This document shows, in pieces, positions 47,871 through 64,000 of a stretch of DNA of 64,000 nucleotides. Source of the stretch: Candidatus Eremiobacteria bacterium. GTDB lineage: Bacteria; Vulcanimicrobiota; Vulcanimicrobiia; Vulcanimicrobiales; Vulcanimicrobiaceae. Every line of letters starts with the position of its first letter. The first letter of the stretch is position 1. The notes under the pieces were generated by a model, which saw only the letters and a program-made list of their open reading frames with translations, did no database searches and was not told the origin of the DNA. The stretch lies in the NCBI GenBank assembly GCA_963758295.1, contig CAVWUU010000003.1, positions 96,001 to 160,000 on the forward strand, in the 5' to 3' direction. The translations under genes were made by a program, and so were the position numbers.

Positions 47871-50042
47871 ATGCGCCCTTTCGCTGCAGTACTTCTCGCG
47901 TGTTCCCTCCTTGCTGCATGCACCGGAAATCAGTCGTCGACGTCGGAGAGTTCCGCTTCTCCGGGAGAGACCGCTTCGGCGAATGCATCACCGGCTGAAT
48001 CCGCGTCTCCGCTTGAATCCGGATCGCCCGGTACCTCCGCTGCGCCGGCGAATTTCCCCGATGCAACCGTGTTGCTGAATTCACAAAGCGATAACAACAA
48101 CTGGCCGATTTCGGGCAAAACGTATGGCGGCAATCGTTTGACCGGGCTCACGCAAATTACGCCGTCCAACGTCAATCAACTGAAGAAGGCGTGGGTCACT
48201 GCCGTTGCGGACGACGGCGAAGAGGAAGCATCGCCCATCGTTTGGGACGGCGTCGTGTATCTCTCCACCGCGCACGATAATATGCTGGCTCTGGACGGAA
48301 CGACCGGAAAATTAAAGTGGGCGTTCGGCTACAATCCGTCTTACGAGTTGCAATACGCCGTCAATCGCGGCGTGGGATTAGCCAACGGAAACGTGTACAT
48401 CGTTACGCAAGATTGCCGCCTTGTGGCAGTTGACGCCGCCACGGGCACGCAACGCTTCAACGTTCCGGCCTGCCACGATACGTCCGATGCGTGGTACTCC
48501 ACCGCATCGTACGTTTATAAGGACAAGGTGATCGTCGGTACGTCGGGCGGCGATTTGGGCGGCAGCGGATTGGTGAGCGCGTTTGATGCGAATACGGGAA
48601 ACCGTCTATGGGATTGGCACACTGTCGCGCAGCCCGGCGAAGCGGGACACGAAACGTGGCCGGGTGATTCTTGGAAGCACGGCGGTGCCGCGGTTTGGGC
48701 CGGATTGTCGATCGGCCAAGACGACGACACCGTTTATGCAGCTCCGGGAAACGCCGGGCCTAACCTTACGGAATACGGACACAAAGGCAAGAATCTCTAT
48801 TCAGATTCCGTCGTTGCGCTCGACGTGTCCGGGTCGCAGCCGAAGTTGAAGTGGTATTACCAAGTTCTTCAAAACGACACCCACGACGCCGATCCGGCGA
48901 TGCCGCCGGTGCTTTTCGAGGCTAATGTGGGCGGCACGGCGCGCAAGCTTCTTGCAACCGGCGATAAGGCCGGAGACTTCGTCGTCCTGGATCGCACGAA
49001 CGGCCAAGAGGTTTATCGTACCGCCGTAAGCTCGCAGTCGAATCTCGATACGCCTCCAACGACGCAAGGCGTGCATGCATGTCCGAATCACGGTGGCGGC
49101 GTCGAATGGAACGGCGGTTCCTACTCGCCGCAAACAAACATGTTCTACATTCCCAGTACGAATGAATGCGCGACGTGGAAGGTCGTTTACACCGGCGCCG
49201 TTCCGTACGTTCCCGGCCAGCCGTACACCGCCGGGCCGCTGCCGAAGCGACAACCCGCAACCGGCGTGATCACGGCAATCGACATGGGCACCGGTAAGGT
49301 GGCATGGAAAGACGCGGTCCCCTATCCGGCGCAAGGCGGCGTACTCGTGCAGTCCAACGGCTTGATCTTCACGAGCGACGCCAGCGGCCGCGTATACGCG
49401 CTCGACGCGAAGACGGGCAAAGACTTATGGCATGACGACACCGGTTCGTCGATCGTTGCGCCAATCTCCGCATATCAAGGATCTGACGGTAAAGAGTACC
49501 TCGTCCTCATTGCCGGCGAAGCGGGAAATCAGAAGACTCCGAATTTGCCCGCAACGCATGGCGCACGCATCGTCGCGTATACGCTTAATGCGTCGCAAAC
49601 CGCGATGAACGACGCGTCGGGACAACCGAAGGTGAACGTTGCGACCGCCGGCGGAGCAAAGACCGAAAGCGGCAACGCGCCCTCGACCGTGGGCCAAGGC
49701 ACGGCGCCCTATACGGCCGATCAGGCTTCGGCCGGCAAGAAAGTCTTCGAAACCCAGTGTTCGTCGTGCCATGGCGCGCAATTGCAGGGCGTTTCAGCGC
49801 CGGCCTTGAGCGGGCCGCAATTCGCACATGCGAACCTAAACGTTTCGCAGATTTATGCCATCGTCACCAAGCAGATGCCGCTTAGTGCGCCCGGATCGCT
49901 CTCGCAAGACGAATATGCCGACGTGATGGCGTACATTTTGAAACGTGATTGCGTGAAGCCGACCGCCGGAAATGAGAAGTTCCCGAGCACCAATCTTCCA
50001 GTGCTCTCCAAGGTGACGGTCGGCTCCGGAAGCTGCCCGTAA
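47871..50042 (+). CDS. PQQ-dependent dehydrogenase lipoprotein with C-terminal cytochrome c domain
   Basis: Lipobox LAAC; QITPSNVNQLKKAW; W-motifs (ALDGTTGKLKW, ALDAKTGKDLW); NRG; GGAAVW; NLYSDSVVALD; CP..GG..W; CSSCH and MP. Confidence 0.92.
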   Translation: MRPFAAVLLACSLLAACTGNQSSTSESSASPGETASANASPAESASPLESGSPGTSAAPANFPDATVLLNSQSDNNNWPISGKTYGGNRLTGLTQITPSNVNQLKKAWVTAVADDGEEEASPIVWDGVVYLSTAHDNMLALDGTTGKLKWAFGYNPSYELQYAVNRGVGLANGNVYIVTQDCRLVAVDAATGTQRFNVPACHDTSDAWYSTASYVYKDKVIVGTSGGDLGGSGLVSAFDANTGNRLWDWHTVAQPGEAGHETWPGDSWKHGGAAVWAGLSIGQDDDTVYAAPGNAGPNLTEYGHKGKNLYSDSVVALDVSGSQPKLKWYYQVLQNDTHDADPAMPPVLFEANVGGTARKLLATGDKAGDFVVLDRTNGQEVYRTAVSSQSNLDTPPTTQGVHACPNHGGGVEWNGGSYSPQTNMFYIPSTNECATWKVVYTGAVPYVPGQPYTAGPLPKRQPATGVITAIDMGTGKVAWKDAVPYPAQGGVLVQSNGLIFTSDASGRVYALDAKTGKDLWHDDTGSSIVAPISAYQGSDGKEYLVLIAGEAGNQKTPNLPATHGARIVAYTLNASQTAMNDASGQPKVNVATAGGAKTESGNAPSTVGQGTAPYTADQASAGKKVFETQCSSCHGAQLQGVSAPALSGPQFAHANLNVSQIYAIVTKQMPLSAPGSLSQDEYADVMAYILKRDCVKPTAGNEKFPSTNLPVLSKVTVGSGSCP

Positions 50043-52124: not shown

Positions 52125-52826
52125 ATGACGGTCGATCTGAATGCCGACGTGGGCGAGGGCTGTGCGAACGACGCAGCGCTATTCGAAATCGTAACGTCGG
52201 CAAACATTGCGTGCGGATGGCACGCGGGCGACGAAGAGACAATGCGACGCACCGTGCGCGCCGCGATGACGCACGGCATAGCGATCGGCGCACACCCGTC
52301 GTATCCCGACCGCGAGCGTTTCGGACGCGCGCCGATGAACCGAGCGACCGAAGACGTCTACGCCGACGTGGCGGCGCAACTTCGCTCCCTACACGCGGTG
52401 GTCGCAAAAGAAGGCGGAGCGTTGCGGCACGTGAAGGCGCACGGCGCATTATATAACGCCGCTTCCGCAGATCGCATTATAGCCGACGCCATCGTAGCAG
52501 CGGTGCGCGACTTCGATCCAGCACTGGCAGTCGTCGGACTTGCCGGAGGCGCCCTGATCGACGCAGCGACACGTGCCGGCATGCGCGCCGTCCCGGAAGG
52601 CTTCGCCGACCGCCGTTATGACGGCGCCGGAATGCTCGTGCCCAGAACGGCGCCCGGCGCCTTCGTTGAGAATGCCGACGAAGCTCTGGAGCAAACGCTG
52701 GCGCTAATAGGCCAAAAGGTTCAGTCGATCTGCCTCCACGGTGACGATCCGCATGCGCTGGAGTTTGCGAAGACGCTGCGCGACGGCCTGAAGAATTACG
52801 GCATTTCGATCGCTGCAGTACGATAA
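52125..52826 (+). CDS. pxpA: 5-oxoprolinase subunit A (LamB/YcsF)
   Basis: DLNADVGEG, SANIACGWHAG, GAHPSYPD, HVKAHGALYN, EGFADRRY, ICLHGD. Confidence 0.95.
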   Translation: MTVDLNADVGEGCANDAALFEIVTSANIACGWHAGDEETMRRTVRAAMTHGIAIGAHPSYPDRERFGRAPMNRATEDVYADVAAQLRSLHAVVAKEGGALRHVKAHGALYNAASADRIIADAIVAAVRDFDPALAVVGLAGGALIDAATRAGMRAVPEGFADRRYDGAGMLVPRTAPGAFVENADEALEQTLALIGQKVQSICLHGDDPHALEFAKTLRDGLKNYGISIAAVR

Positions 52827-53015
52827 ATGTATCGCTAGCGTAAAGGCGGCGCGTTTTACATTATCGACGCGAAAAGACTTGGTAATGCGCTGCGGCGTTT
52901 ATTAACTTGGGTCCTACCCGTTTGCTATATTTGGCCTATCGTAACCAGCCGGGCTCTACGCCGCATGACGCGGTCTTTGGAACCGGCGCATTTTTGACGT
53001 GTCCGGAGGGGACCA

Positions 53016-53453
53016 ATGGAATGGAACCACCGAGTCGCCGCGTTGTTCCTCACGTTCGTGGTTTCAGCCACGGCGTTTGCCTATGCGGCCGCTCCCAGCG
53101 TTCAGCTCAAGCTGAGCGGATCGATCGTTACTTCAACCGCGCCCGGAAAGACGGCATACTTGCCGCTTACGCGATCCGTGAAAGCCGGCGAAGTCGTCCG
53201 CTACACGATCGTGGCGCATAACGGCGGCAGCGCGCCGGCCTATCAGCTGGCTCCGGTCGGCAACATTCCCGCGCGGACCGCGTTCTTGAAGATTGACGAA
53301 TCGCCGCAGGGCGCGCACGTCGAATATACGGCTGACGGTAAGAAATGGTCCAAGGCGCCGATGAGCGGAATGCGCTCTTTGCGTTGGACGCTCTCGCGTG
53401 CGCTGCCGCAAGGCGCCACGTCGACCTTCGCCTACGAGGTCCGCGTTAAATGA
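53016..53453 (+). CDS. Small secreted single DUF11-like Ig-domain protein
   Basis: GGAGGGG RBS; signal peptide AYA-A; AGEVVRYTIVAHNGG, IP, VEYTADG, LRWTL; ends STFAYEVRVK. Confidence 0.85.
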   Translation: MEWNHRVAALFLTFVVSATAFAYAAAPSVQLKLSGSIVTSTAPGKTAYLPLTRSVKAGEVVRYTIVAHNGGSAPAYQLAPVGNIPARTAFLKIDESPQGAHVEYTADGKKWSKAPMSGMRSLRWTLSRALPQGATSTFAYEVRVK

Positions 53454-55942
53454 AGCGGTATCTCGTTTCTGCAGCAGCGTGGCTGACGGCAGCATCACTT
53501 GCCGCTAATGTGGTTTTGCTTCCGCTTGGAAGCGACGCCGCGAACGGCCACGACGATCCAGGCACGCAAATTACGAACAGCGCAAGCGCCGTCTATAAAG
53601 ACGCCGCCGGCAATACGTACAACACGACTTCCAACACCGTAACGACGACGGTGCAAAACGCGCCGACGTTGACGAACGTTCAAGGCAGCGGCACGAGCTA
53701 TGCGCCGGGTCAGACGATCGCCGACACGTTCGTCATCACGAACACCGGTAACGGCCCCGGCACGTTGCAGCTTTCCGATTCGAGCGCGGCACCGACTGCT
53801 TCATCGGATGCCGTTCTCGCGGGCAGCGATGCCGCCTCAGCAACGCTCGGCAACAACGCCGCGACCTGTACCACTCCGGTCGGATCGCAGTCTGCGCCGT
53901 GTAAGTACTCGGCCACCGTCGGCGGCACGACGTACTCCTTCACGAGCTTCAACGGCACGTCGGACAACAATTCCCTCGACTACTGGCTGTTGCACACCAA
54001 TGGAACGACGGCAGCCGGCTCGTCCATCACCGTCACGGTGTATTACACCCTCTCGAATTCGGCGACGACGCCCGGAACCGTAACGTCGCAGATCTTTGCG
54101 ACGGTCGCGTATGCCGCGTCGGGAAGCGCTCCTGCCGAGACCTCGGCGTCGGTTTCCGCAACGGAATCGAACACGGTGACCGCCGATGCGCGCCTCGACT
54201 TATACAAGGCGAGCTCGCAAAACGGCTCGACCGGCGACATCACCTATACGATCTCCGCGCATAACGGTGGCGCGTTTGCCGCCAAGGACTTGCAGTCTGT
54301 CAAAGCGCTCCTCGGTGCAGCCACGGCCGGTGTCTTCATCACCGATCGCATTCCGCAGTTCGGTGGATCGCCGTTGACGCTGAGCAACTCCGGTGCGGTT
54401 ACGGTTACGCCGAATGCTGCTTACGGTTATGCGACCGGCGCTACGGCGGACGTGTACTACACGACGTCGGCGAACGGCTCGTCGGGCTGGACAAAGGCTG
54501 CGGGAAATCTTCCGACCGACGGCACCGTCACGTACATCGGCATCTTTATTCACGGCGGTACGTGTACGAGCGCCGGGTACGAGCTATGCGCCGATACCGG
54601 GCACGGGACGACTCCGGGCAACGCAAACGTTGCATCCGCCGCCGCCCTGCAATTTGCGTTCACCGTCGCACAGCCCACGGGGCCGGGATCCGCTAACTCC
54701 GGTTCGGTGAAGAACATCGCGAACGGCGTCATCGGCGATAACCAGCCGACGGAACATATTCTGGGACCGGGTATTCCGGGCGGTACGGCCGATAGCGGTT
54801 CGTCGACGCCGCTCACCACGGCCGGACAGGGCGTGAACAATACGACGAACACGTCCACCAACGGCGGATCGAATCAAACCAGCGATCAGGCGTTGTCGTC
54901 CTATGCACCGTTGAATGGACCCGCGGGCCAGCCGGCGGCGACTGGAAGCTACGACGGCGCCGTCGCGAGCAATACGAGCGACGACTTTACTGCATATCCG
55001 TTTGGTCTTGCCGGTGATGCCGTCGCCAACACCAGCACAACCCCCGGCACTCCGACCACCGTCGCGACGCTTGGTGCCGGCGGCCAGACGCTCTGTGTGC
55101 CGAACACCGTAAAGAACAACGGCAACCACGACGACGCGTTTAACGTCGTCGCCAATGCCCCGACGCAGTACGCCGTCCCGGCTACTACCGGCGGTACGGT
55201 GGTCGCCACGTGGAAGGTCGGCATCTACTCGGACAATCTGTGTAGTTCCGCGCTCGGCGGTGCTACGGACGGCTCCAGTTCGTCGACTGCTTCGAACGTG
55301 AGCGTCACGTCCGGAAATGCGCTCAACTATTATGTGAAGTATATTGTGCCGGCCGGCGCGCCGTACTTCAATCGCTTCGACTCGGTAATCACGGCGACGA
55401 GCATCGGCGACAACACCAAGTCCAACACGACGCACGACGAACTATACTCCGGCTTCATTGCTCTGACGAAATCGCAAAGCGTCACAAGCAACGGCTGTCC
55501 GGCAGGCGTGTCACCGTCCTACGCGGCCAACACGGTTTGTCCGACCGGCGTACTGAAATACACCGTCGACTACCGCAACCTCGTAATGGGCACGAGCAGC
55601 ACGAACGCTTCGTTTAGCGCGGTCGTCACCTCGGCTGGCTCGTTGCAAATCACGGATGACGGCACGCTTTCCACATCGGCCTCAAGCACCACGACGCCGA
55701 ACTGGGCATCGTTCGCGGCAATGACGGCGTCGCCGGCCGATACGACGACGGGTTCGACCTACACGTACTACACCGGTGTACCGGCGAGCGGCGGCGGCAG
55801 CGCGACGTGGTCGTCGAGCGCAACGAAGTTCATCGACCTTGTCGGCGGAGCTGCGTTCCAATTGGTTCCTAAAAACTACAACGCTCCGTCTGCGTCGCAA
55901 GGAAACCAAGGAACGATCCAGTTCTCGATCTCGGTACAATAG
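53450..55942 (+). CDS. Large secreted Thr/Ser/Gly-rich DUF11-type multi-Ig protein (candidate fibre shaft subunit)
   Basis: Signal peptide; N-terminal PGTQITNSA..Y..SNTVTTTV; Ig repeats with TNTGN and KNNGN; DUF11 units LYKA..ITD..KNIA and LTKS..ITD; ends TIQFSISVQ. Confidence 0.85.
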   Translation: MKRYLVSAAAWLTAASLAANVVLLPLGSDAANGHDDPGTQITNSASAVYKDAAGNTYNTTSNTVTTTVQNAPTLTNVQGSGTSYAPGQTIADTFVITNTGNGPGTLQLSDSSAAPTASSDAVLAGSDAASATLGNNAATCTTPVGSQSAPCKYSATVGGTTYSFTSFNGTSDNNSLDYWLLHTNGTTAAGSSITVTVYYTLSNSATTPGTVTSQIFATVAYAASGSAPAETSASVSATESNTVTADARLDLYKASSQNGSTGDITYTISAHNGGAFAAKDLQSVKALLGAATAGVFITDRIPQFGGSPLTLSNSGAVTVTPNAAYGYATGATADVYYTTSANGSSGWTKAAGNLPTDGTVTYIGIFIHGGTCTSAGYELCADTGHGTTPGNANVASAAALQFAFTVAQPTGPGSANSGSVKNIANGVIGDNQPTEHILGPGIPGGTADSGSSTPLTTAGQGVNNTTNTSTNGGSNQTSDQALSSYAPLNGPAGQPAATGSYDGAVASNTSDDFTAYPFGLAGDAVANTSTTPGTPTTVATLGAGGQTLCVPNTVKNNGNHDDAFNVVANAPTQYAVPATTGGTVVATWKVGIYSDNLCSSALGGATDGSSSSTASNVSVTSGNALNYYVKYIVPAGAPYFNRFDSVITATSIGDNTKSNTTHDELYSGFIALTKSQSVTSNGCPAGVSPSYAANTVCPTGVLKYTVDYRNLVMGTSSTNASFSAVVTSAGSLQITDDGTLSTSASSTTTPNWASFAAMTASPADTTTGSTYTYYTGVPASGGGSATWSSSATKFIDLVGGAAFQLVPKNYNAPSASQGNQGTIQFSISVQ

Positions 55943-55950
55943 AACAACCC

Positions 55951-58125
55951 ATGAAAGCACGGCCCGCTCTTCGGGTTGTAGCGACTGTCGCGTTGTGCTG
56001 CGTCTTTGCGGCACAGCGCGGTTTCGCTGCTCCTGCGGGCGGCGCCGCAATCGTGAACGCGGTTTCGGCAACCTACGCCGACGCCGCTTCGCACGTGTAT
56101 CAGACGTCGTCTAACGCCATCGTCGCTACGGTCGCGAGTCTCTCGTCAGTCGTCGTTTCGCCGAAGGAAGCCTCGGCAAACGCCTCGGCGGACGGAGTGC
56201 CCGTCGCCTCGACGGTGACGCGGACTTTCACGATTACCAATACTTCCAATATTCCAGACGCGTATCAGATCGACAAACTTTCGGCTGGTACGCTGGCTAT
56301 TTCCAAAGTCGTGTGGATTACTTCATCGGGCTCGATCGCAACCCGCATCAACGGCAGCACGTCGCCGGCTGTTGCGCCCAACGCCTCGATCTCCGCGCAG
56401 GTTACGATTTCCACGAACGGCATGACGATCGGCCAGAGCGTGGCGATACAATTTGAAGCGCATACGACGGTAACCGGCACGCAGAACGGCATCGCTGCGG
56501 ACAGCGGGCAACAGTGGCTTGTCGGCACGTCGGGTCCGCATCTCGTAGGCCCCGCGGGCGCGAACACCCTCGTTTCCAAAACGGTGAACGAATCATCGCT
56601 TGTGCAATCACAGCCCGGAAGTTCCGTGCAGTTCCAAATTGCCGCGAAAAATGCGGGCGGCAGTGCGGCGACCAACGTGAAGATTTCGGATCCCGTCCCT
56701 GCGGGATTGGCGATCGATTTGTCGTCGGCGACGATCGACGGACAGCCGGCGGGCGCGCAAGCTTCCGTGTCGGGACAGACGATTACCTTCGTGATCCCGC
56801 AGCTCGACGGCGGCGTTATGCTGAACGTGGCGTTTCGCGCATCTTTGCCGCCGGGCAACACGCTTGGACAATCCTTCGTTAACGTTGCATCTATTTCCGC
56901 GGACGGCATTCCGGCGCAAGGCACTACGCCGGCCGACGTCTTCGACGGCTCGGCCGACATCGTGTTCGACGGCTATGCCGGCGGCTCGCATCCGGTCGGC
57001 GGCGCAACCGTAGCGTTGCTGGACGCAGCCGGTAACCCGGTGAATCTCGCGTCTGCGACCCCGGCAGATCGCGCGCGCATGGCTTCGGCGGCGCAGAGCG
57101 GGACGACCAATCCGGTCGTCACCACCAACGACGGAACGTATGGATTTGCGCTTTCCGCATCCGCCATCCCGTCGCAAGGCGCGCGCTATTACTTGACAAT
57201 TGCCGCGCCCGGGTATCTGAACCGCCGTATCGCGGTCGACGTTGCACCCGCGGCTCATGCGTCCTTTTACAATGTTACCCAAACCTCAGTGGACGGTCAG
57301 CCGCTTGCGATGGCGGGCGGCTTTACGCTGACGAAAAACAACGTCAGCATTCAAGACGTTTTCGGATTGTTTGGAAACCTGCCGCTTTTCGCGCAAAGCA
57401 CCATCGTCGTTTCTAAGACGAGCGACAAACAGGCCGCATCGGCCGGCGATCGTGTGATGTACTCGCTACAGTTTCAAGACCAGTCGGCGATGGCGTTCAA
57501 CGACGTCGCGGTTGTAGACACGATGCCGGCCGGACTGGTCTACCTGCGCGGCACCGCTCGCCTTGACGGCGACGCGATCGAGCCGCGCGTTGAAGGGCGC
57601 ACGCTCACGTGGGACCTCAGCTCGCTCGCGCCTTCCGAACAACACACGATCGCGTATGCGGCGACGATTTTCGGCGACATCGCGCCCGGTTCGACGCTTA
57701 CGAATCAGGTTGCCGTTTCCGGAACGGGAAGTTCCGGCGGCGTGCGCGCGAGCGGATCCTCTTCGGCAACGGTGACGGTGCTCGGCGGACCGTTTTCCGC
57801 GCGGCGCGTCGTGGCGGGACGCGTGTTCTTCGACGATGCCAAAACGGGAACGTTCGCTAAGGGCGATCGCGTCGCCGCGGGCGTTCGCGTGTTCATGGAA
57901 GACGGTTCGTTTGCGTTAACCGACGTTAACGGCGCGTTCTCGTTCCCCGCGGTCCGTCCGGGCATGCATGCATTGCGCCTGGATCCGCTTTCGCTGCCGG
58001 CTAATGCGCTCGTCGCGAGCGATGCGCCGATGACTTCGCCGTACTCGCTCGAACGGTTGCTGCACGGCATTTTAGACGACGCAACGATGGAAGACGTCGA
58101 GTTCGCGTTGGAGCCGAAATCGTGA
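55951..58125 (+). CDS. Secreted DUF11-repeat protein with C-terminal SdrD-B/carboxypeptidase-regulatory-like domain
   Basis: Signal peptide; two complete DUF11 units (VSKT..SDPVP..FVNVA; VSKT..VDTMP..LTNQV); GRVFFDD..GVRVFMEDG..TDVNGAFSF..PGMHALRLD. Confidence 0.87.
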   Translation: MKARPALRVVATVALCCVFAAQRGFAAPAGGAAIVNAVSATYADAASHVYQTSSNAIVATVASLSSVVVSPKEASANASADGVPVASTVTRTFTITNTSNIPDAYQIDKLSAGTLAISKVVWITSSGSIATRINGSTSPAVAPNASISAQVTISTNGMTIGQSVAIQFEAHTTVTGTQNGIAADSGQQWLVGTSGPHLVGPAGANTLVSKTVNESSLVQSQPGSSVQFQIAAKNAGGSAATNVKISDPVPAGLAIDLSSATIDGQPAGAQASVSGQTITFVIPQLDGGVMLNVAFRASLPPGNTLGQSFVNVASISADGIPAQGTTPADVFDGSADIVFDGYAGGSHPVGGATVALLDAAGNPVNLASATPADRARMASAAQSGTTNPVVTTNDGTYGFALSASAIPSQGARYYLTIAAPGYLNRRIAVDVAPAAHASFYNVTQTSVDGQPLAMAGGFTLTKNNVSIQDVFGLFGNLPLFAQSTIVVSKTSDKQAASAGDRVMYSLQFQDQSAMAFNDVAVVDTMPAGLVYLRGTARLDGDAIEPRVEGRTLTWDLSSLAPSEQHTIAYAATIFGDIAPGSTLTNQVAVSGTGSSGGVRASGSSSATVTVLGGPFSARRVVAGRVFFDDAKTGTFAKGDRVAAGVRVFMEDGSFALTDVNGAFSFPAVRPGMHALRLDPLSLPANALVASDAPMTSPYSLERLLHGILDDATMEDVEFALEPKS

Positions 58126-61100
58126 TGAAACTTTCACGGTTTCTTCAGTGCGCGGGCGCCACGTTAAGCATGTTCGCTATATTCGGCCAGCAAACCGTGG
58201 GCGGTTCGTTCGCGGCTACGGTCACGCCTCCGGCCGCAGCCGCTACACCGGCGGCCTCCGCAGCACCGGCCGGCTTTGTGGTACCAAACGCTTCCGCGTC
58301 ACCCGCCGCGTCGGAAACCGCCGAGAGCCTTTCGAATCTCACCTACACGGCCACCGGGACGCTGCAGGCGTCGTTCGTCGCGCCGGTTAGCGATGATGCC
58401 TCACCGGTAACGGCCGCGCAAGTCGTCGTTTCTACGCAACGCGGTGCAGGCATCGAACTTCGCGCGAACGACGTCGTTATTGATTCCAAGCATCTCGGCA
58501 AACGCACCGTCAATACGAAGACCGGCGAAACGCAATACTTTTTTTACGGCGTGCCGCTCGCGCCCGGACCGAATACCCTAAGCGCAACGCCGCTGGGCGC
58601 GGGGGATACGCGCGGGCCTGAATCGTCGATAACGGTTTACGGTCCGTCGGAGGCGGCCAGCGTAAAGGCCGAATTCGGCCAACATCTTGTCGCAGACGGA
58701 AAGACGGCGGTACCCCTGAACATCACCGTCCTAGACCGTTTCGGCCACGCGTCACTTCCCGCTCAGCGCGTGCACGTTGCCATTCTCAGCGGCGACGTGC
58801 ACTTCGTCGATCTGCCGAAAGAGGACAGCGCACAAGCGGCGCCGGCCGCATCGCCGTCGCCCAACGTCGTGGCTTCGCCGCCGTCGCAGGGGCGCGAAGC
58901 GACTGTCGCGTTGCCCGTTGGTGCCTATTTCTCGCTGCGCGTGCAACCGGGCGTCGTAGCCGGTCCTTTCGAAGTTGAAATTCGAGCGGGGAACGCGTAC
59001 GCGCGTAAAACGTTTTATGTCGATCCGTTCGTCCGTTCGGCGTTCGTCAACGGCGTCGTCAGCGCGGGAACCGGCATCGTGCCGGGCGCCGTAGACGGCG
59101 ACGCGTTGTACGACAACGGCGGCGCGCGGCACGAGCGGCTGGCGATGTTCGGCACGGGCGCCGTCGGGAAGTCGCTGCTTACCGTCGCTTACGAATCGCA
59201 GAACCGGCTCTCGCCCGTGTCGTCTTTTGGCCCCTTCGTGGACGATCCCAACGAGCGTCCGTATTTGACCTACGGCGATGCCTCGCAAGTCACGTCGCCC
59301 TATCATTCCGAAGATCATCTCTACGCCCGTGTCGATCGCGGGCGCAGCAGCGCCATGTGGGGACAGTATCAAGCCTCAATCGGGCCGAACGACGTAGGAT
59401 CGTACCAGCAGTTGCTAAGCGGCGCGAAAGTGGATCTTTCGCTTGGTCGCGACGCGCGCGCAAACGTCGTGGGCTTTTCCGCTCGCAACGATCAAGCGTT
59501 CGTTTCTCAAATTCTTCCGGTCTCCGGTCTAGCTCAATTGATGCAGCCGCTACATCCGCAAATCGTCGTATCTTCCGAATTGCTGCAACTCGTGACGCTC
59601 GACCGCAGCACCGGCCTCGTCCTCCACGAAGTGCCGTTGCTACGGAACGTCGATTACACGATCGACTATGCCACCGGCACGCTGCGTTTCATCAACGTTC
59701 CGCTGCCGTACGACGAAGAATTCAACCCGCAAGTCATTTCGCTGCAGTACGAATATGAGGGCCCGGGCGTGCAGTCGCAGACGACGGGCGGCCAATTCAA
59801 CTACGATCTGTCGCCCGACCATCACACGAAGCTGCTGTTGAGCTACGTGAACGATGCTACCGGAACCCAGAATTTTGCGCTCTCGAGCGAAGCGCTGACG
59901 CGTACGTGGAGCGGCGGATCGGTGCACCTTTCGCGTGCGACCAGTTTTGGAATGATGCCGAACGCCGGGAACACGCTGCAGCTCGGCGGGAAAAAGTTCC
60001 GAACTCCGGAAGCGCGTATTCGTTTGCGTTCGACGAACGGGCTCGCGGGGATGCCGTCAACCTCGGATTTCAATCGACGACCGCCGGCTACGACGATCCG
60101 TTCGGCGGCTTCAGCACGCCGGGAACCAACGCATATCGTGCCCTGTGGAATCACGGAACGCAGACGAAGGGCCAGCTTTCGTTGAGCTACTCCGGCCAGC
60201 AGAACCACGGCGTCGGCGAGGAGAGCCGCGAAGGCGATCTGACGCTCCAATTGATCCGGACTCTCGCGCGTAACCTCACCGGCTCGTTCGGATTTACGCA
60301 ACACCAACAGCGCGTTGGCGGCGTGGTTTCAGCATCGCCGGCTCCGGGCGTCGCACTTGCAAACACGGCGCAAACGCAGGCGCAAGCCGCCCTCGACTAC
60401 CAACTTCCCAAACACTTCGGTGTCGCGATCTCCGAAGCCATGACGCTCGCGGGCTCGGACGTCGGTTCCACGCAGCCGTCGCAAACCGCCATCGAGGCCT
60501 CGTACGATCTTCCAAAGCAGGGGCGCATTTTCGCGCGCGAATTGCTGAGCGCGCAACCGTCGGCGACGTTTGCAAACTCGACTTCTAACTTGAACGTCGG
60601 CTCGGGCTCCACGCGCTCGCTGCAGCTCGGCATAGAACAGCCGCTTTCCTCGGCGACTTCTGTTAGCTCGCAATACGTGGTCGATCAGACCGGGTCGGGT
60701 TTGAACGTTTATGATGCCGCCGGCGTCGACGAACGGCTGCATTTGACCAAAACGATCGGCGCAAATTTTCAAGTGCAAGCCGCTAATGCGGTCGGCAACG
60801 GCGCGCAAGGGTTTACGCTTTTGAGCGGCACGCTTAACTATGCGGGCGTTCCCGGCGGCTTCCGTTCCTCGCTTTCGTACCAGGATCGCACGGGCGATAC
60901 CGGCGGATCCACGCTCGCCGCTGCCCTTGCGGGACGCGTTACGGCGAATGTTTCAGCCGTCGGGTTCATTCAGCACGCGTACGGAAACGGCATCGACGCG
61001 ATCAACGACCGCCTCTCGTTTGCGTATCGCCCGTCGACAAGCGACCGGCTCATCTCGCTCTTTGATTACACGCGCACAAACGGCGCGTCGTTGAGCGGTG

Positions 61101-61489
61101 AGGCTTCTAACGTGCTCTCGTTCGAAGAACTTTTCCACGCGACGCCGCGCTTGGAACTTGCAGGACGCATGGCGTACAAGCTTGACGGCGGCGGATTGTA
61201 CGTCGCAAAGACGACGCTGTACGCGCTTCGCGCACGGCAAACTATCGGCAAAACAAACGACATCGGCGCCGAAGTGCGCACAATTAACGTGCCGGGCGGA
61301 ACCGGTGCGCGCCAAACCGAAGTCGCGGTCGAAGCGGGTCAAACGCTGGGCCGCAGCGCGCGTGTTGGTCTCGGTTACAACCTCTCCGGCAGCGTCGATC
61401 CGACGCTCGTGGGACAAGCGCAACGCCATGGATTCTACCTGACGGTAACGTCTTTGATCGACCGGATCTTCGGATGGGGCAAACCGTGA
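58122..61489 (+). CDS. Large secreted protein with predicted outer-membrane beta-barrel, one frameshift near 59990
   Basis: Signal peptide; Ig-like region (LAPGPNTL, ADGKT); YLTYGDAS; LLRNVDYTIDYATGTLRF; long run of amphipathic beta-strands ending VGLGYN..GFYLTVT. ORFs 58122-60185 and 59906-61489 switch at GGGAAAAAG. Confidence 0.8.
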
Positions 61490-64000
61490 CGCGCCTTGTG
61501 ATGAAACGCGCGCTCGCAATGCTGTTGCTGGCTGCACAAACTGCGGCAGGGATAGCCGCCGGTGAAGTCGCCGCCGTTATTCCGGCTCAAGCAGCGTCGT
61601 ACACGTGTAATGCGGGCAAGGACGGTGCCGCCGGTTCGCTTACAGGCGCATACAACACCTATTACACGCCGCCGGCGGGTACGGCCGCTTCGGGCGCGAC
61701 GTCGATTCAGCTTGGAACCGTGGATACGGGCGGAGGCGGTGCTTCAACCGTCGTTGCTGCGGGGGATTTGTTGCTGATTATTCAGATGCAAGACGGCTCG
61801 CTCAACGACGTCAATTCGTCGTCGTACGGCATGACGAGCGTTGGAAACGCAGGTCTCTACGAGTACGTGCAAGTCGTCTCGGTCAGCGCCGGGACGGCGA
61901 CTATTTACGGTGCCAATGCCGGCAGGCCTCATCAATTCGTACACCGAAGCCGCGGCGACGAGTTCCAGCGGCCAGAAAACGTATCAAATCATTCGCGTGC
62001 CGCAATATGTCAGCGCCACGCTGACGGGCACGTTTCACGCCGGATACTGGGACGGAAAAACCGGCGGCGTGGCCGCGCTGGACATCGCGACGACGTTAAA
62101 CCTAGGCGGCGCTTCGCTTTATGCGACGGGTGACGGATTTCGCGGCGGCGGCGTATCGGTTGCCGGCGGCACCTCGAACTCGGCGGTTTTAAACAGCGAC
62201 TGGATGGTGCCAGGCTTTACGAACAACTCGAACCCGCCGTCGCATGGATTCAAAGGCGAAGGCATTCTCGGAACACCGGCGTACACGTTCGGTTACACCG
62301 TATTCACCACGCCGTCCACGCCCGCGAGCCCAACGGTCAATAAGGGCGCGGCCGACGGGTATCCGGGCGGCGACATGGCGCGCGGCGCGCCGGGTAACGC
62401 GGGCGGCGGCGGCACGGATGCCGATCCCGTTTCGAACGATCAAAACACCGGTGGCGGCGGCGGGTCCAACGGCGGGAACGGCGGCAACGGCGGCTGGCCC
62501 TGGACTCCGAGCGAGCCGCAGTATCCACAAAATTCTCCGGGCGCTAACGCTGCAGGGAATTATGCGGCAGCCGATGCCACGCACAATCCGGACATCGGCG
62601 GGCGCGGCGCAACGGCGATGACGCTTGCTGTTATCGCGCGTTTTCCTGGGCGGCGGCGGCGGCGCCGGTTCGAACAACAACGGTTCAAACAATAACTCTG
62701 CAAACAATTACGGTTCTTCCGGCGGAACAGGCGGCGGCATCATCATGATGCGCATCGCGCGACACGAGCGGTTCGCCGGCAACCATTTATGCCGACGGTA
62801 CTACCGGTCTCGCGCCCGACAACGACGGCGGGGGCGGCGGCGGAGCGGGCGGAACGGTTGTCATCACATCGCCGAAGCAGTTTACCGGCGTTACGGTCTA
62901 TGCTCGCGGCGCAGCGGGAACCTCGGCGTATTACAAAACCGCGGATACGAGCTCGACGACTGCACACGGCCCGGGCGGCGGCGGCGGCGGCGGTGCCGTT
63001 TATTCCAGCAGTCCCGTTACTGCAACCGTTAGCGGCGGTACAAACGGCGTGACCGTTTACGGCGTGAGCGAAGCGTATGGCGCAACGCCGGGCACGGCCG
63101 GCACCTCGTCGGTAATAAGCGCCGGTTCGATTCCGGGCGTGCCGTCCGGCGCCGAATGTTACACCACGCCCACGGCGACGTCGCCGTTGTACCTCGGTCC
63201 GGTCGATGCGACGGAAGCAACGTACAACGGGTCGGATTACACCGGTTCTTACAACGGCTCGGCGAGTGCAACGAACAACGATGATTTCACGGCGCGCAGC
63301 TTCGACCCCGGAGGCGTCGCCATGACGAACGCCGGAACGACGCCGGGCACGCCGGTTGGTAATGCGCTCGCCGGTACTGCGACGGTCAACGTCCCAAACG
63401 AGCTGTACTATAGCAACGCCGGCGTCAATTCCGCAAAGACGCTCACGCTAAGCGGGACTGCGCCGCTGACCCCATCAGGTTGGATTATCCGATTTTGCCC
63501 GGATAGTGCGGGTGTTCCGGACTGCAGCGGCGGGACAACAACGCCGTTTGCGCCCACTACAGCCGGCACAACCACCTCGACGACAATAGCCGTTGCCAAG
63601 AAACAGAATTCCGGGTCGGCAAAATTTTGGGCGGTCTACAGCGCGCCGACAGGCACTACCGCTTTCACGCGTTACGATTCCGTACTGAGCTTGGATGACG
63701 GCACGTCGACGAATCTCACGCACGATGAGCTTTACACCGGGTTCATTCCAATCACGAAGCAAACGACGGTGGTTGCTAACGGGTGTCCTGCGAACGTGAC
63801 GCCGCCGGCGGGCGGAATTTGTCCGGGCGGTGTTTTGCGATATACGCTTGATTACCGCAACATCATGACGGGTGCGGGACAAGGAACCGAAGGGCAGTTG
63901 CTTTCCGCGTTTCTGGCGACCGCGGCCGGACAGTTGAGCATCACCGACAACGGCGCGGCAGCGGGAAATTCGTGGGCCACGAATACGAACGGGCTGAAAG
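61486..64000 (+). CDS. Secreted Gly-rich adhesin-like protein with C-terminal DUF11-type domains; frameshifted and 3'-truncated by window
   Basis: Signal peptide; GDLLLIIQMQ, YQIIRVPQY, WDGKTGG, GFRGG, poly-Gly tracts. Frame 1 near the end reads HDELYTGFIPITKQ..GCP..CPGGVLRYTLDYRN..ITDNG, paralogous to the 53450 gene end. Confidence 0.83.

Follow-up and report, generated by a model that had tools for sequence, protein, structure and literature searches.

Does the cluster of five consecutive genes at positions 53016-64000 of this stretch encode a surface fibre whose subunits complete one another's domains? The stretch, referred to as the window, comprises 64,000 nucleotides (nt) of the genome of a Candidatus Eremiobacteria bacterium (contig CAVWUU010000003.1, positions 96,001 to 160,000). 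The genome is assembled into six contigs with a total length of 3.03 Mb and is 82% complete. The genes, named g1 to g5, are located on the plus strand in the same orientation, with overlapping or near-adjacent ends, and all five proteins g1, g2, g3, g4 and g5 have signal-peptide-like starts. This agrees with a preliminary description made from the sequence, which reported five co-oriented secreted genes. Names of close relatives of its proteins and loci put the genome in the Eremiobacterota (Vulcanimicrobiota, Baltobacteraceae-like). For the C-terminal domains of g2 and g5, the abbreviations g2C and g5C are used.

53016..53453, plus strand: g1, a secreted protein of 145 amino acids (aa) with a truncated single CLIPPER/DUF11 domain
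53450..55942, plus strand: g2, a candidate shaft subunit of 830 aa, donor hairpin at the N-terminus and acceptor domain at the C-terminus
53558..53653, plus strand: donor hairpin of g2, residues 37-68 (PGTQITN...SNTVTTTV)
55451..55942, plus strand: acceptor domain of g2, residues 668-830, ending in QGTIQFSISVQ
55951..58125, plus strand: g3, a candidate base subunit of 724 aa
56038..56133, plus strand: donor hairpin of g3, residues 30-61 (GGAAIVN...SNAIVATV)
58122..61489, plus strand: g4, a predicted outer-membrane protein of about 1120 aa with two immunoglobulin-like (Ig-like) domains and a giant beta-barrel
61474..64000, plus strand, running past the window: g5, a candidate tip protein of about 915 aa with a C-terminal acceptor and without a hairpin

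A CLIPPER domain is split between proteins of the cluster, and this architecture is kept in relatives. The hairpin formed by the last two strands of the domain is located at the N-termini of g2 and g3, and the C-terminal domains of g1, g2 and g5 end before it. The cluster probably encodes a surface fibre that would be built without a sortase or a PapD-like chaperone, by complementation of the split CLIPPER (DUF11, CnaA-like) domain in trans.

The split CLIPPER domain

The DUF11 domain has been renamed CLIPPER, and the available portion of its description presents the crystal structure 9IFR as a CnaA-like domain (PMC12617251). The triad Lys715-Asp748-Asn806 of that domain includes an intramolecular Lys715-Asn806 isopeptide bond beside Asp748, and in CnaA-like folds the bond connects the first and penultimate strands (PMC12617251).

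With 74.2 bits, protein g3 passes the Pfam threshold of 24.6 for DUF11 (PF01345; E = 1.3e-20, two stretches), and it also matches TIGR04226, an isopeptide-forming fimbrial domain (1.7e-15). Its donor hairpin is followed by two complete CLIPPER domains, and its C-terminal domain is SdrD_B-like, with a weak SdrD_B/CarboxypepD_reg match; an acceptor domain is absent. The Lys/Asp/Asn triad is intact in both complete domains and conserved in 43 orthologues. The DUF11 match of g1 (23.4-24.0 bits) is just under the cut-off and covers profile positions 11-84 of 114, running to the very end of g1; comparison of g1 with the DUF11 domains of g3 gives an hhalign probability of 95.6. Curated Pfam families have zero matches in g2, g4, and g5, and a weak AgmC_N match of g5 (1.1e-9) is under the cut-off. 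The earlier designation of the cluster as a five-gene DUF11 operon thus holds for g3, narrowly fails for g1, and does not extend to the remaining three proteins. Sequence searches of solved structures with the g4 profile, g3, and the g2 profile gave zero matches. The Pfam scan of the isolated hairpins was equally empty, as was that of a control hairpin from inside g3, and it is hence uninformative.

The hairpins of g2 and g3 are homologous (hhalign probability 98.2) and constitute the first ~32 mature residues, directly behind the signal peptide. Of all 30-residue windows of g2, that of the hairpin is the best conserved. Among 74 sequences of the g2 hairpin, N62 is invariant, and at least 90% retain N43, D51, S61, and V68; K674 and D737 of the g2 acceptor domain likewise reach at least 90% conservation. 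The domains g2C and g5C are homologous (hhalign probability 99.9), and g5 ends with QGTITFAVVIK. In a complete CLIPPER domain, the hairpin follows the strand with which g1, g2, and g5 all finish, and their acceptor domains thus stop exactly one hairpin short. The preliminary description had noted a lone hairpin at the mature N-termini of the proteins starting at 53450 and 55951, and its lack from the C-terminal domains of those starting at 53450 and 53016. Both observations are borne out, the second by the early end of the DUF11 match in g1 and by the predicted fit of the hairpin into g2C.

The sequence pattern K-strand...D(x)xP...G-x-x-x-x-N, which the preliminary description had not recognized as such, corresponds to the CLIPPER isopeptide triad, and the joint between hairpin and acceptor is therefore probably covalent. 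The strand with the Asn is missing from the g2C, g5C, and g1 domains, and g1 also lacks the Asp. The missing hairpin, with which mature g2 and g3 begin, contains the conserved Asn of the penultimate strand. K674 is on the first strand of the acceptor of g2 and N43 on that of the hairpin, which agrees with the published position of the CLIPPER bond. N43 is the likelier bonding residue because, of the conserved hairpin residues of g2, its equivalent alone remains conserved in a distant family of fused proteins described below.

The pairing of hairpin and acceptor was predicted from g2 residues 655-830 and 31-75, each with its own alignment, together with three controls. The hairpin was placed in g2C with a score of 0.82 (0.77, 0.85, and 0.82 in individual runs), compared with 0.01 for the best of the three controls. 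Of 157 solved complexes, 116 attain the mark used for this score, as do 2 of 215 mismatched pairs; these counts apply only roughly because our own alignment was used. The runs have at least 72% of contacts in common, and the pLDDT (predicted local distance difference test) of the partner is at least 74. Hairpin residues 45-50 contact residues 731-736, in the strand bearing D736/D737, and hairpin residues 61-64 contact residues 672-674 of the first strand, which includes K674. The acceptor side of the modelled interface is formed by residues 666-676, 702-708, 723-738, 744-752, and 823-829. The predicted pairing is the CnaA arrangement, and in the model the hairpin completes the fold, a result that does not distinguish between cis and trans. 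The high score may be due in part to the likeness of the pair to solved intact CnaA-type domains.

A further CnaA-like domain is located inside g2 (window 54185-54900, residues 246-483), with a conserved Lys at about residue 252, D299-x-x-P302, and N416. It resembles CnaA-type pilin domains (BcpA, Z 10.2, root-mean-square deviation (rmsd) 2.8, 128 residues aligned) and is probably a normal isopeptide domain, bonded within the chain, that carries a large insertion. A Foldseek search with the whole g2 model gave generic multi-Ig matches, and g2C is scarcely covered among the structural matches of g2 (VIA).

The acceptor domain of g1 has a distinct sequence. The position of the Asp in D-x-x-P is occupied by Gly in 43 of 48 Eremiobacterota orthologues, and distant g1-like proteins have the consensus V-G-x-I-P, again with Gly for Asp; the first-strand Lys is kept in 30 of the 48. 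Because Gly replaces the catalytic Asp, g1 is an acceptor apparently unable to catalyse the bond. Judged from its sequence, g1 is most likely a periplasmic chaperone or cap that binds the hairpin without bonding to it; a chaperone or cap had been proposed earlier.

Donors and acceptors in related clusters

Searches identified 90 relatives of g2, and species genomes yielded 52 loci with g2, nearly all of which are labelled Eremiobacterota. The gene order g1-g2-g3-g4(-g5) recurs in these loci wherever the contig extends far enough. A hidden Markov model (HMM) of the hairpin recognizes all 45 intact g2 and all 44 intact g3 orthologues, partly by construction, and none of 47 g1, 38 g4, and 24 g5 orthologues. 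Two paralogous clusters are present on one chromosome (L011 and L020, both in record OY969579.1). The order g3-g4-g5-g1-g2, followed by a further g3-like gene, in L056 looks rearranged or tandem. Six cluster contigs (L017, L028, L048, L039, L050, and L055) are labelled Verrucomicrobiia, Limnocylindria, or Rhodospirillales, which could be the result of mis-binning or gene transfer.

The distribution of the g4 family in the phylum is patchy: the g4 profile matches 73 of 301 sampled genomes, a tally that includes two genomes flagged unpublished (G213 and G264), and 36 of 100 genera. Among 1.84 billion representative sequences, the profile matches 3193 clusters at E ≤0.001 and 1305 at ≤1e-30. Of the 142 family representatives examined, 57 are at least 1400 aa long, with the g4 module at the C-terminus. 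Thirteen representatives were scanned with Pfam; ten of them are fused proteins (at least 1400 aa), all ten of which contain DUF11 repeats N-terminal to the g4 module, and nine have an SdrD_B domain just ahead of it. The succession of DUF11 repeats, SdrD_B, and g4 module is what g3 and g4 would give if joined in that order. The hairpin HMM matches 35 of the 57 fused proteins, always within the first 100 residues, compared with none of 85 unfused ones. A strict regular expression for the hairpin matched only 8 of the 57, an undercount relative to the HMM. Two of the fused proteins carry Acidobacteriota names. Related single-chain stalk proteins contain 8-19 tandem DUF11 repeats each. In another family of the phylum, a protein of 1789 aa (L058, G100:C164, 2065-7434, minus strand) has a g3-like part with a hairpin fused to a g4-like part, and the open reading frame (ORF) upstream of it has the acceptor-like end ...LYFGVKIAQ.

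With ten fused proteins as queries, 80 metagenome loci were found, which were analysed with HMMs built from Eremiobacterota proteins only. The N-terminal hairpin is present in 53 of the 59 fused anchors that are complete at the 5' end. In all 49 loci with at least 2.5 kb of upstream sequence, the adjoining gene ends in an acceptor domain, and 48 of these 49 genes also have an N-terminal hairpin. A g1-like gene precedes the g2-like gene in 47 of 48 loci and always lacks the hairpin. Downstream, 49 of the 58 loci with at least 2.5 kb of sequence contain a hairpin-less gene, encoding 278-2321 aa, that ends in an acceptor-like domain. The equivalent of K674 is present in 50 of 50 distant g2-like proteins, and the position equivalent to 736 is acidic in all 50 (Glu in 45, Asp in 5); the tip-type acceptors retain the first-strand Lys and D-x-x-P. 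The pattern of donors and acceptors persists across 41-70% identity among the anchors and across fusion or fission of g3 and g4. The gene-neighbourhood survey suggested in the preliminary description thus finds the pattern kept, rather than lost, in homologous clusters.

The outer-membrane barrel and the copy in the window

The fold of g4 was predicted from an intact orthologue that is 65-67% identical to the pieces in the window. Residues 60-300 form two confident Ig-like domains, which match intimin D00-D0 (Z 11.9). From residue 319 onwards, the model runs up and down in 41 strands, each 6-16 residues long. The best matches of this part are outer-membrane barrels:

FimD usher: Z 14.6, 309 residues aligned, rmsd 8.7 (best VIA match)
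Deinococcus S-layer barrel (SlpA-type): Z 12.4, 458 residues aligned, rmsd 9.6
LptD: Z 11.2, 424 residues aligned, rmsd 13.4
BtuB: Z 10.9, 322 residues aligned, rmsd 6.6
SusC: Z 10.9, 330 residues aligned, rmsd 6.3

The high rmsd values fit a g4 barrel that is bigger than all of the matched barrels. The genome contains an Omp85/BamA gene, and an outer membrane is therefore expected. With its run of strands, the likeness to solved barrels, and Omp85 in the genome, the modelled g4 has the general properties of an outer-membrane beta-barrel, as had been proposed. Compared with the type IX secretion translocon SprA/Sov (TIGR04189), g4 scores 14.1 bits against a cut-off of 200, and SprA appears in the Foldseek list only at a low TM (template modelling) score. 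A search of the ESM Atlas with g4 returned unnamed clusters only, without a structure. The g4 proteins end with the conserved motif ...V(V/I)DR(I/L)FGWG(K/R)x (window 61440-61489 and orthologues), which is positioned past the last predicted barrel strand, and lack the usual terminal aromatic residue.

The preliminary description was right that genes are present at 58122 and 61486, but neither is a single ORF. In the window, g4 consists of two overlapping ORFs, and comparison with an intact orthologue places a frameshift at 59990-59996 in GGGAAAAAG. The frame of g5 changes near 61924 and back between 62632 and 62761; its acceptor domain begins near 63700, and its stop codon is at the window-equivalent position 64219, 219 nt past the window end. 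Most relatives have a single-ORF g4 (about 1080-1250 aa) and a single-ORF g5 (about 810-960 aa). Broken copies occur in 4 of the 52 loci (L009, L019, L032, and L035), all from metagenome-assembled genomes with isolate names starting with 'MFD'. A public DNA run holds part of the stretch in four short contigs, none of which includes the frameshift sites, and no public sequencing run is listed as holding RNA for the stretch.

Upstream of g1, a weak promoter match is the sole plus-strand site in 52600-64000:

52902..52931, plus strand: sigma-70-like promoter match, 5' of g1, weak

The promoter scan found four sites compared with a shuffle mean of 2.5, which is chance level, and the terminator scan was also at chance level. 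The gene 3' of g5, by the look of its sequence a flavin amine oxidase, lies outside the cluster. Further upstream, 47871-50042 (plus strand) encodes a secreted protein of 723 aa with a CSSCH haem-binding motif at its C-terminal end. A second DUF11-rich locus of the genome, outside the window (G000:C1:162800-167300, plus strand), contains two ORFs of about 1100 aa with several DUF11 repeats each; the g4 profile found no g4-like gene next to it.

Fibre assembly and comparison with known systems

In the proposed assembly, g5, with its variable N-terminal part and an acceptor without a donor, would form the tip. The hairpin of g2 would insert into the g5 acceptor, and further g2 units would join head to tail to build the shaft. 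Having a donor and lacking an acceptor, g3 would close the chain with its hairpin. As the base, g3 would be tied to g4, with its Ig-like domains and barrel of about 40 strands, to which it is fused in other lineages. Each joint would probably be locked by an autocatalytic Lys-Asn isopeptide bond from K674 of g2 to N43 of the incoming hairpin, aided by D736/D737, and g1 would serve as a non-reactive hairpin binder. The polarity would be that of chaperone-usher pili, in which an incoming N-terminal donor completes the preceding subunit. The chain could be extruded tip first through the giant barrel, or the subunits could be exported and added outside the cell. These assignments follow the preliminary description and gain support from the computations: g2 as donor plus acceptor from the modelled docking of its hairpin in g2C, g3 as base from the fusion of g3-like proteins to the g4 module in many lineages, the hairpin being N-terminal there too, and g5 as tip from its acceptor-only C-terminal domain and the variable acceptor-only proteins of the distant loci.

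Several results weigh against this assembly. Both g4 and g5 are frameshifted here, so the copy in the window may be broken or mis-assembled, and the model of the g4 orthologue is of moderate quality (pLDDT 70.7, predicted TM score (pTM) 0.53). The alignment of the hairpin with the last DUF11 strands, although placed as expected, has E-values of only 0.016-0.09, the likeness of g2C to the DUF11 profile is weak (probability 15), and profile comparison detects no homology between g1 and g2C (probability 26). Among the listed closest pairs of the complex model, K674 is next to S61 and T64, not N43. The counts from the surveys overstate the independence of the observations because the loci are relatives of one another. 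Finally, the AlphaFold2 monomer model of g2 (pLDDT 90.3) is compatible with a hairpin that closes g2 on itself in cis.

The last point leads to a quite improbable alternative, in which g2 is ringed by its own hairpin, joints in trans are at most those of g3 with g1 or g5, and a fibre is absent. The hairpin blocks of the g2 monomer model have pLDDT values of 80-84, its pTM of 0.71 is high for a five-domain protein, and the complex prediction is blind to the difference between cis and trans. Moreover, the archaeal TafA is modelled as a closed self-complemented monomer in the available part of PMC11821415. However, two distant families keep donor-only proteins (g3 or the fused anchor) and acceptor-only proteins (g1 and g5) next to g2. 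Such proteins need a partner in trans, and a covalently closed g2 would leave these neighbours without a common logic. Assembly in trans could also stop early, so that the product is an adhesin of fixed length with an anchor, an extension, and a tip. The g3 hairpin would then take one g2, and the g2 hairpin one g5 or g1. The donor and acceptor grammar demands just one of each per joint, and the related single-chain proteins make long stalks from tandem DUF11 repeats instead of subunits. Nevertheless, this reading is unlikely, although less so than closure in cis: the pairing that far outscores the controls is homotypic, with hairpin and acceptor both from g2, nothing seen in the sequence forbids g2-g2 joints, and the combination of donor and acceptor in one subunit is the look of polymerising pilins.

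The least probable explanation is that the cluster encodes ordinary DUF11 surface or S-layer-like proteins beside an unrelated large porin, with the N-terminal motif serving g4 as a signal for export or sorting. The position directly after the signal peptide is a frequent place of sorting signals, g2, g4, and g5 lack a curated family, and the function of g4 is only predicted. In contrast, the motif agrees with the last CLIPPER strands in position and in the conserved Asn, it is predicted to fill an acceptor domain, the acceptor domains stop exactly one hairpin short, and the hairpin is absent from the unfused g4-like proteins. The assembly of a fibre by complementation in trans is preferred to these alternatives.

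It is a tentative extension, falling somewhat short of probable, that the clusters represent a widespread, undescribed class of diderm pili with enzyme-free ligation by a split isopeptide domain as a natural Tag/Catcher pair, a variable adhesin that starts the chain, a donor-only base, a dedicated barrel of ~40 strands that anchors the chain or lets it through, and a catalytically dead g1 that prevents premature reaction of the hairpins. If so, diderm bacteria would have a further way of building covalent fibres on their surface that needs neither a sortase nor machinery of the chaperone-usher, type IV, or type V kind. Many soil bacteria would be concerned; the g4 family comprises the 3193 sequence clusters and is carried by Eremiobacterota and Acidobacteriota, among others. 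The reading would explain thousands of hypothetical and 'DUF11 domain-containing' proteins and would assign a function to a family of giant outer-membrane barrels.

Chaperone-usher pili (Fim/Pap) consist of the FimH tip, the FimA rod, and a terminator, and are assembled by the FimD usher and the FimC chaperone. The proposed fibre resembles them in its outer-membrane barrel, for which FimD is the best match. In these pili (see PMC11821415), too, the N-terminal donor completes the previous subunit, the tip is acceptor-only, and the last subunit is donor-only. The fibre would differ in its two-strand donor, its probably covalent lock, its barrel of about 40 strands, and its small accessory protein, which is an acceptor and not a strand donor. 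Pfam detects neither a PapD-like chaperone nor an usher (PF00577) in the five proteins and their intact orthologues. The earlier remark that PapC/PapD and sortase genes were not seen stands for the cluster, but it missed two PapC/FimD-type usher genes elsewhere in the genome (PF00577; G000:C4:310258-311511, minus strand, 77.6 bits; G000:C1:814717-816189, plus strand, 65 bits), which therefore also has classical chaperone-usher loci.

The closest domain is the CLIPPER adhesin domain itself, in the portion of its survey available (PMC12617251): the same family is found in g3 and weakly in g1, the Lys/Asp (D-x-x-P)/Asn triad is the same, the proteins are secreted stalk proteins of diderm bacteria, and the bond is located between the first and penultimate strands. 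The difference is that the last two strands are here detached and found N-terminally in a different protein or a second copy, and the bond would be intermolecular. The words 'split' and 'truncated' are absent from the survey text (PMC12617251). A split DUF11/CLIPPER pilus with a grammar of tip, shaft, base, and cap and a giant barrel was not found in the literature, with subscription journals outside the coverage. The preliminary description had regarded the assembly logic as undescribed, which holds for the split CLIPPER version, but exchange and locking of donor strands is in print for other folds.

One such case is BsaA of Clostridium perfringens, a member of the TasA family, for which 'donor-strand exchange and lock' has been described (bioRxiv 10.1101/2024.11.04.621531). 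According to the available part of that preprint, an N-terminal donor enters the next subunit, and an acid-assisted autocatalytic Asn-Lys isopeptide bond is then formed. The fold of BsaA is TasA-like rather than CnaA/CLIPPER, its donor is a single strand, its triad is N-E-K, and its host is a monoderm; the same part describes neither a barrel nor a grammar of tip, base, and cap. Among g1-g5, no TasA-type Pfam family was detected, the fold matches are CnaA-type pilin domains, and the acid is Asp (Glu in distant relatives). The thread filament of Sulfolobus acidocaldarius is reported to combine donor strand complementation with isopeptide bonds between subunits (PMC9715654 and its preprint). It is likened here by description only; it is archaeal, belongs to a cell with a single membrane, and is not known to have a dedicated barrel.

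The sortase pili BcpA, SpaD, and PilA/PilB also have CnaA/CnaB-type isopeptide domains and covalently linked subunits, whereas the link proposed here would be autocatalytic. A sortase (PF04203) has zero matches in the 82% complete genome, and LPXTG-type sorting tails are absent from g1, g2, and g5, which end with a beta-strand motif without a hydrophobic tail. SpyTag/SpyCatcher is reportedly an engineered split isopeptide domain, the halves of which reconstitute and bond spontaneously (PMC6539128). That pair is man-made and derived from a CnaB domain, whereas the split in the g1-g5 cluster would be natural, of the CnaA type, and used for assembly, and it would provide natural orthogonal Tag/Catcher-like ligation pairs together with a non-reactive binder, g1.

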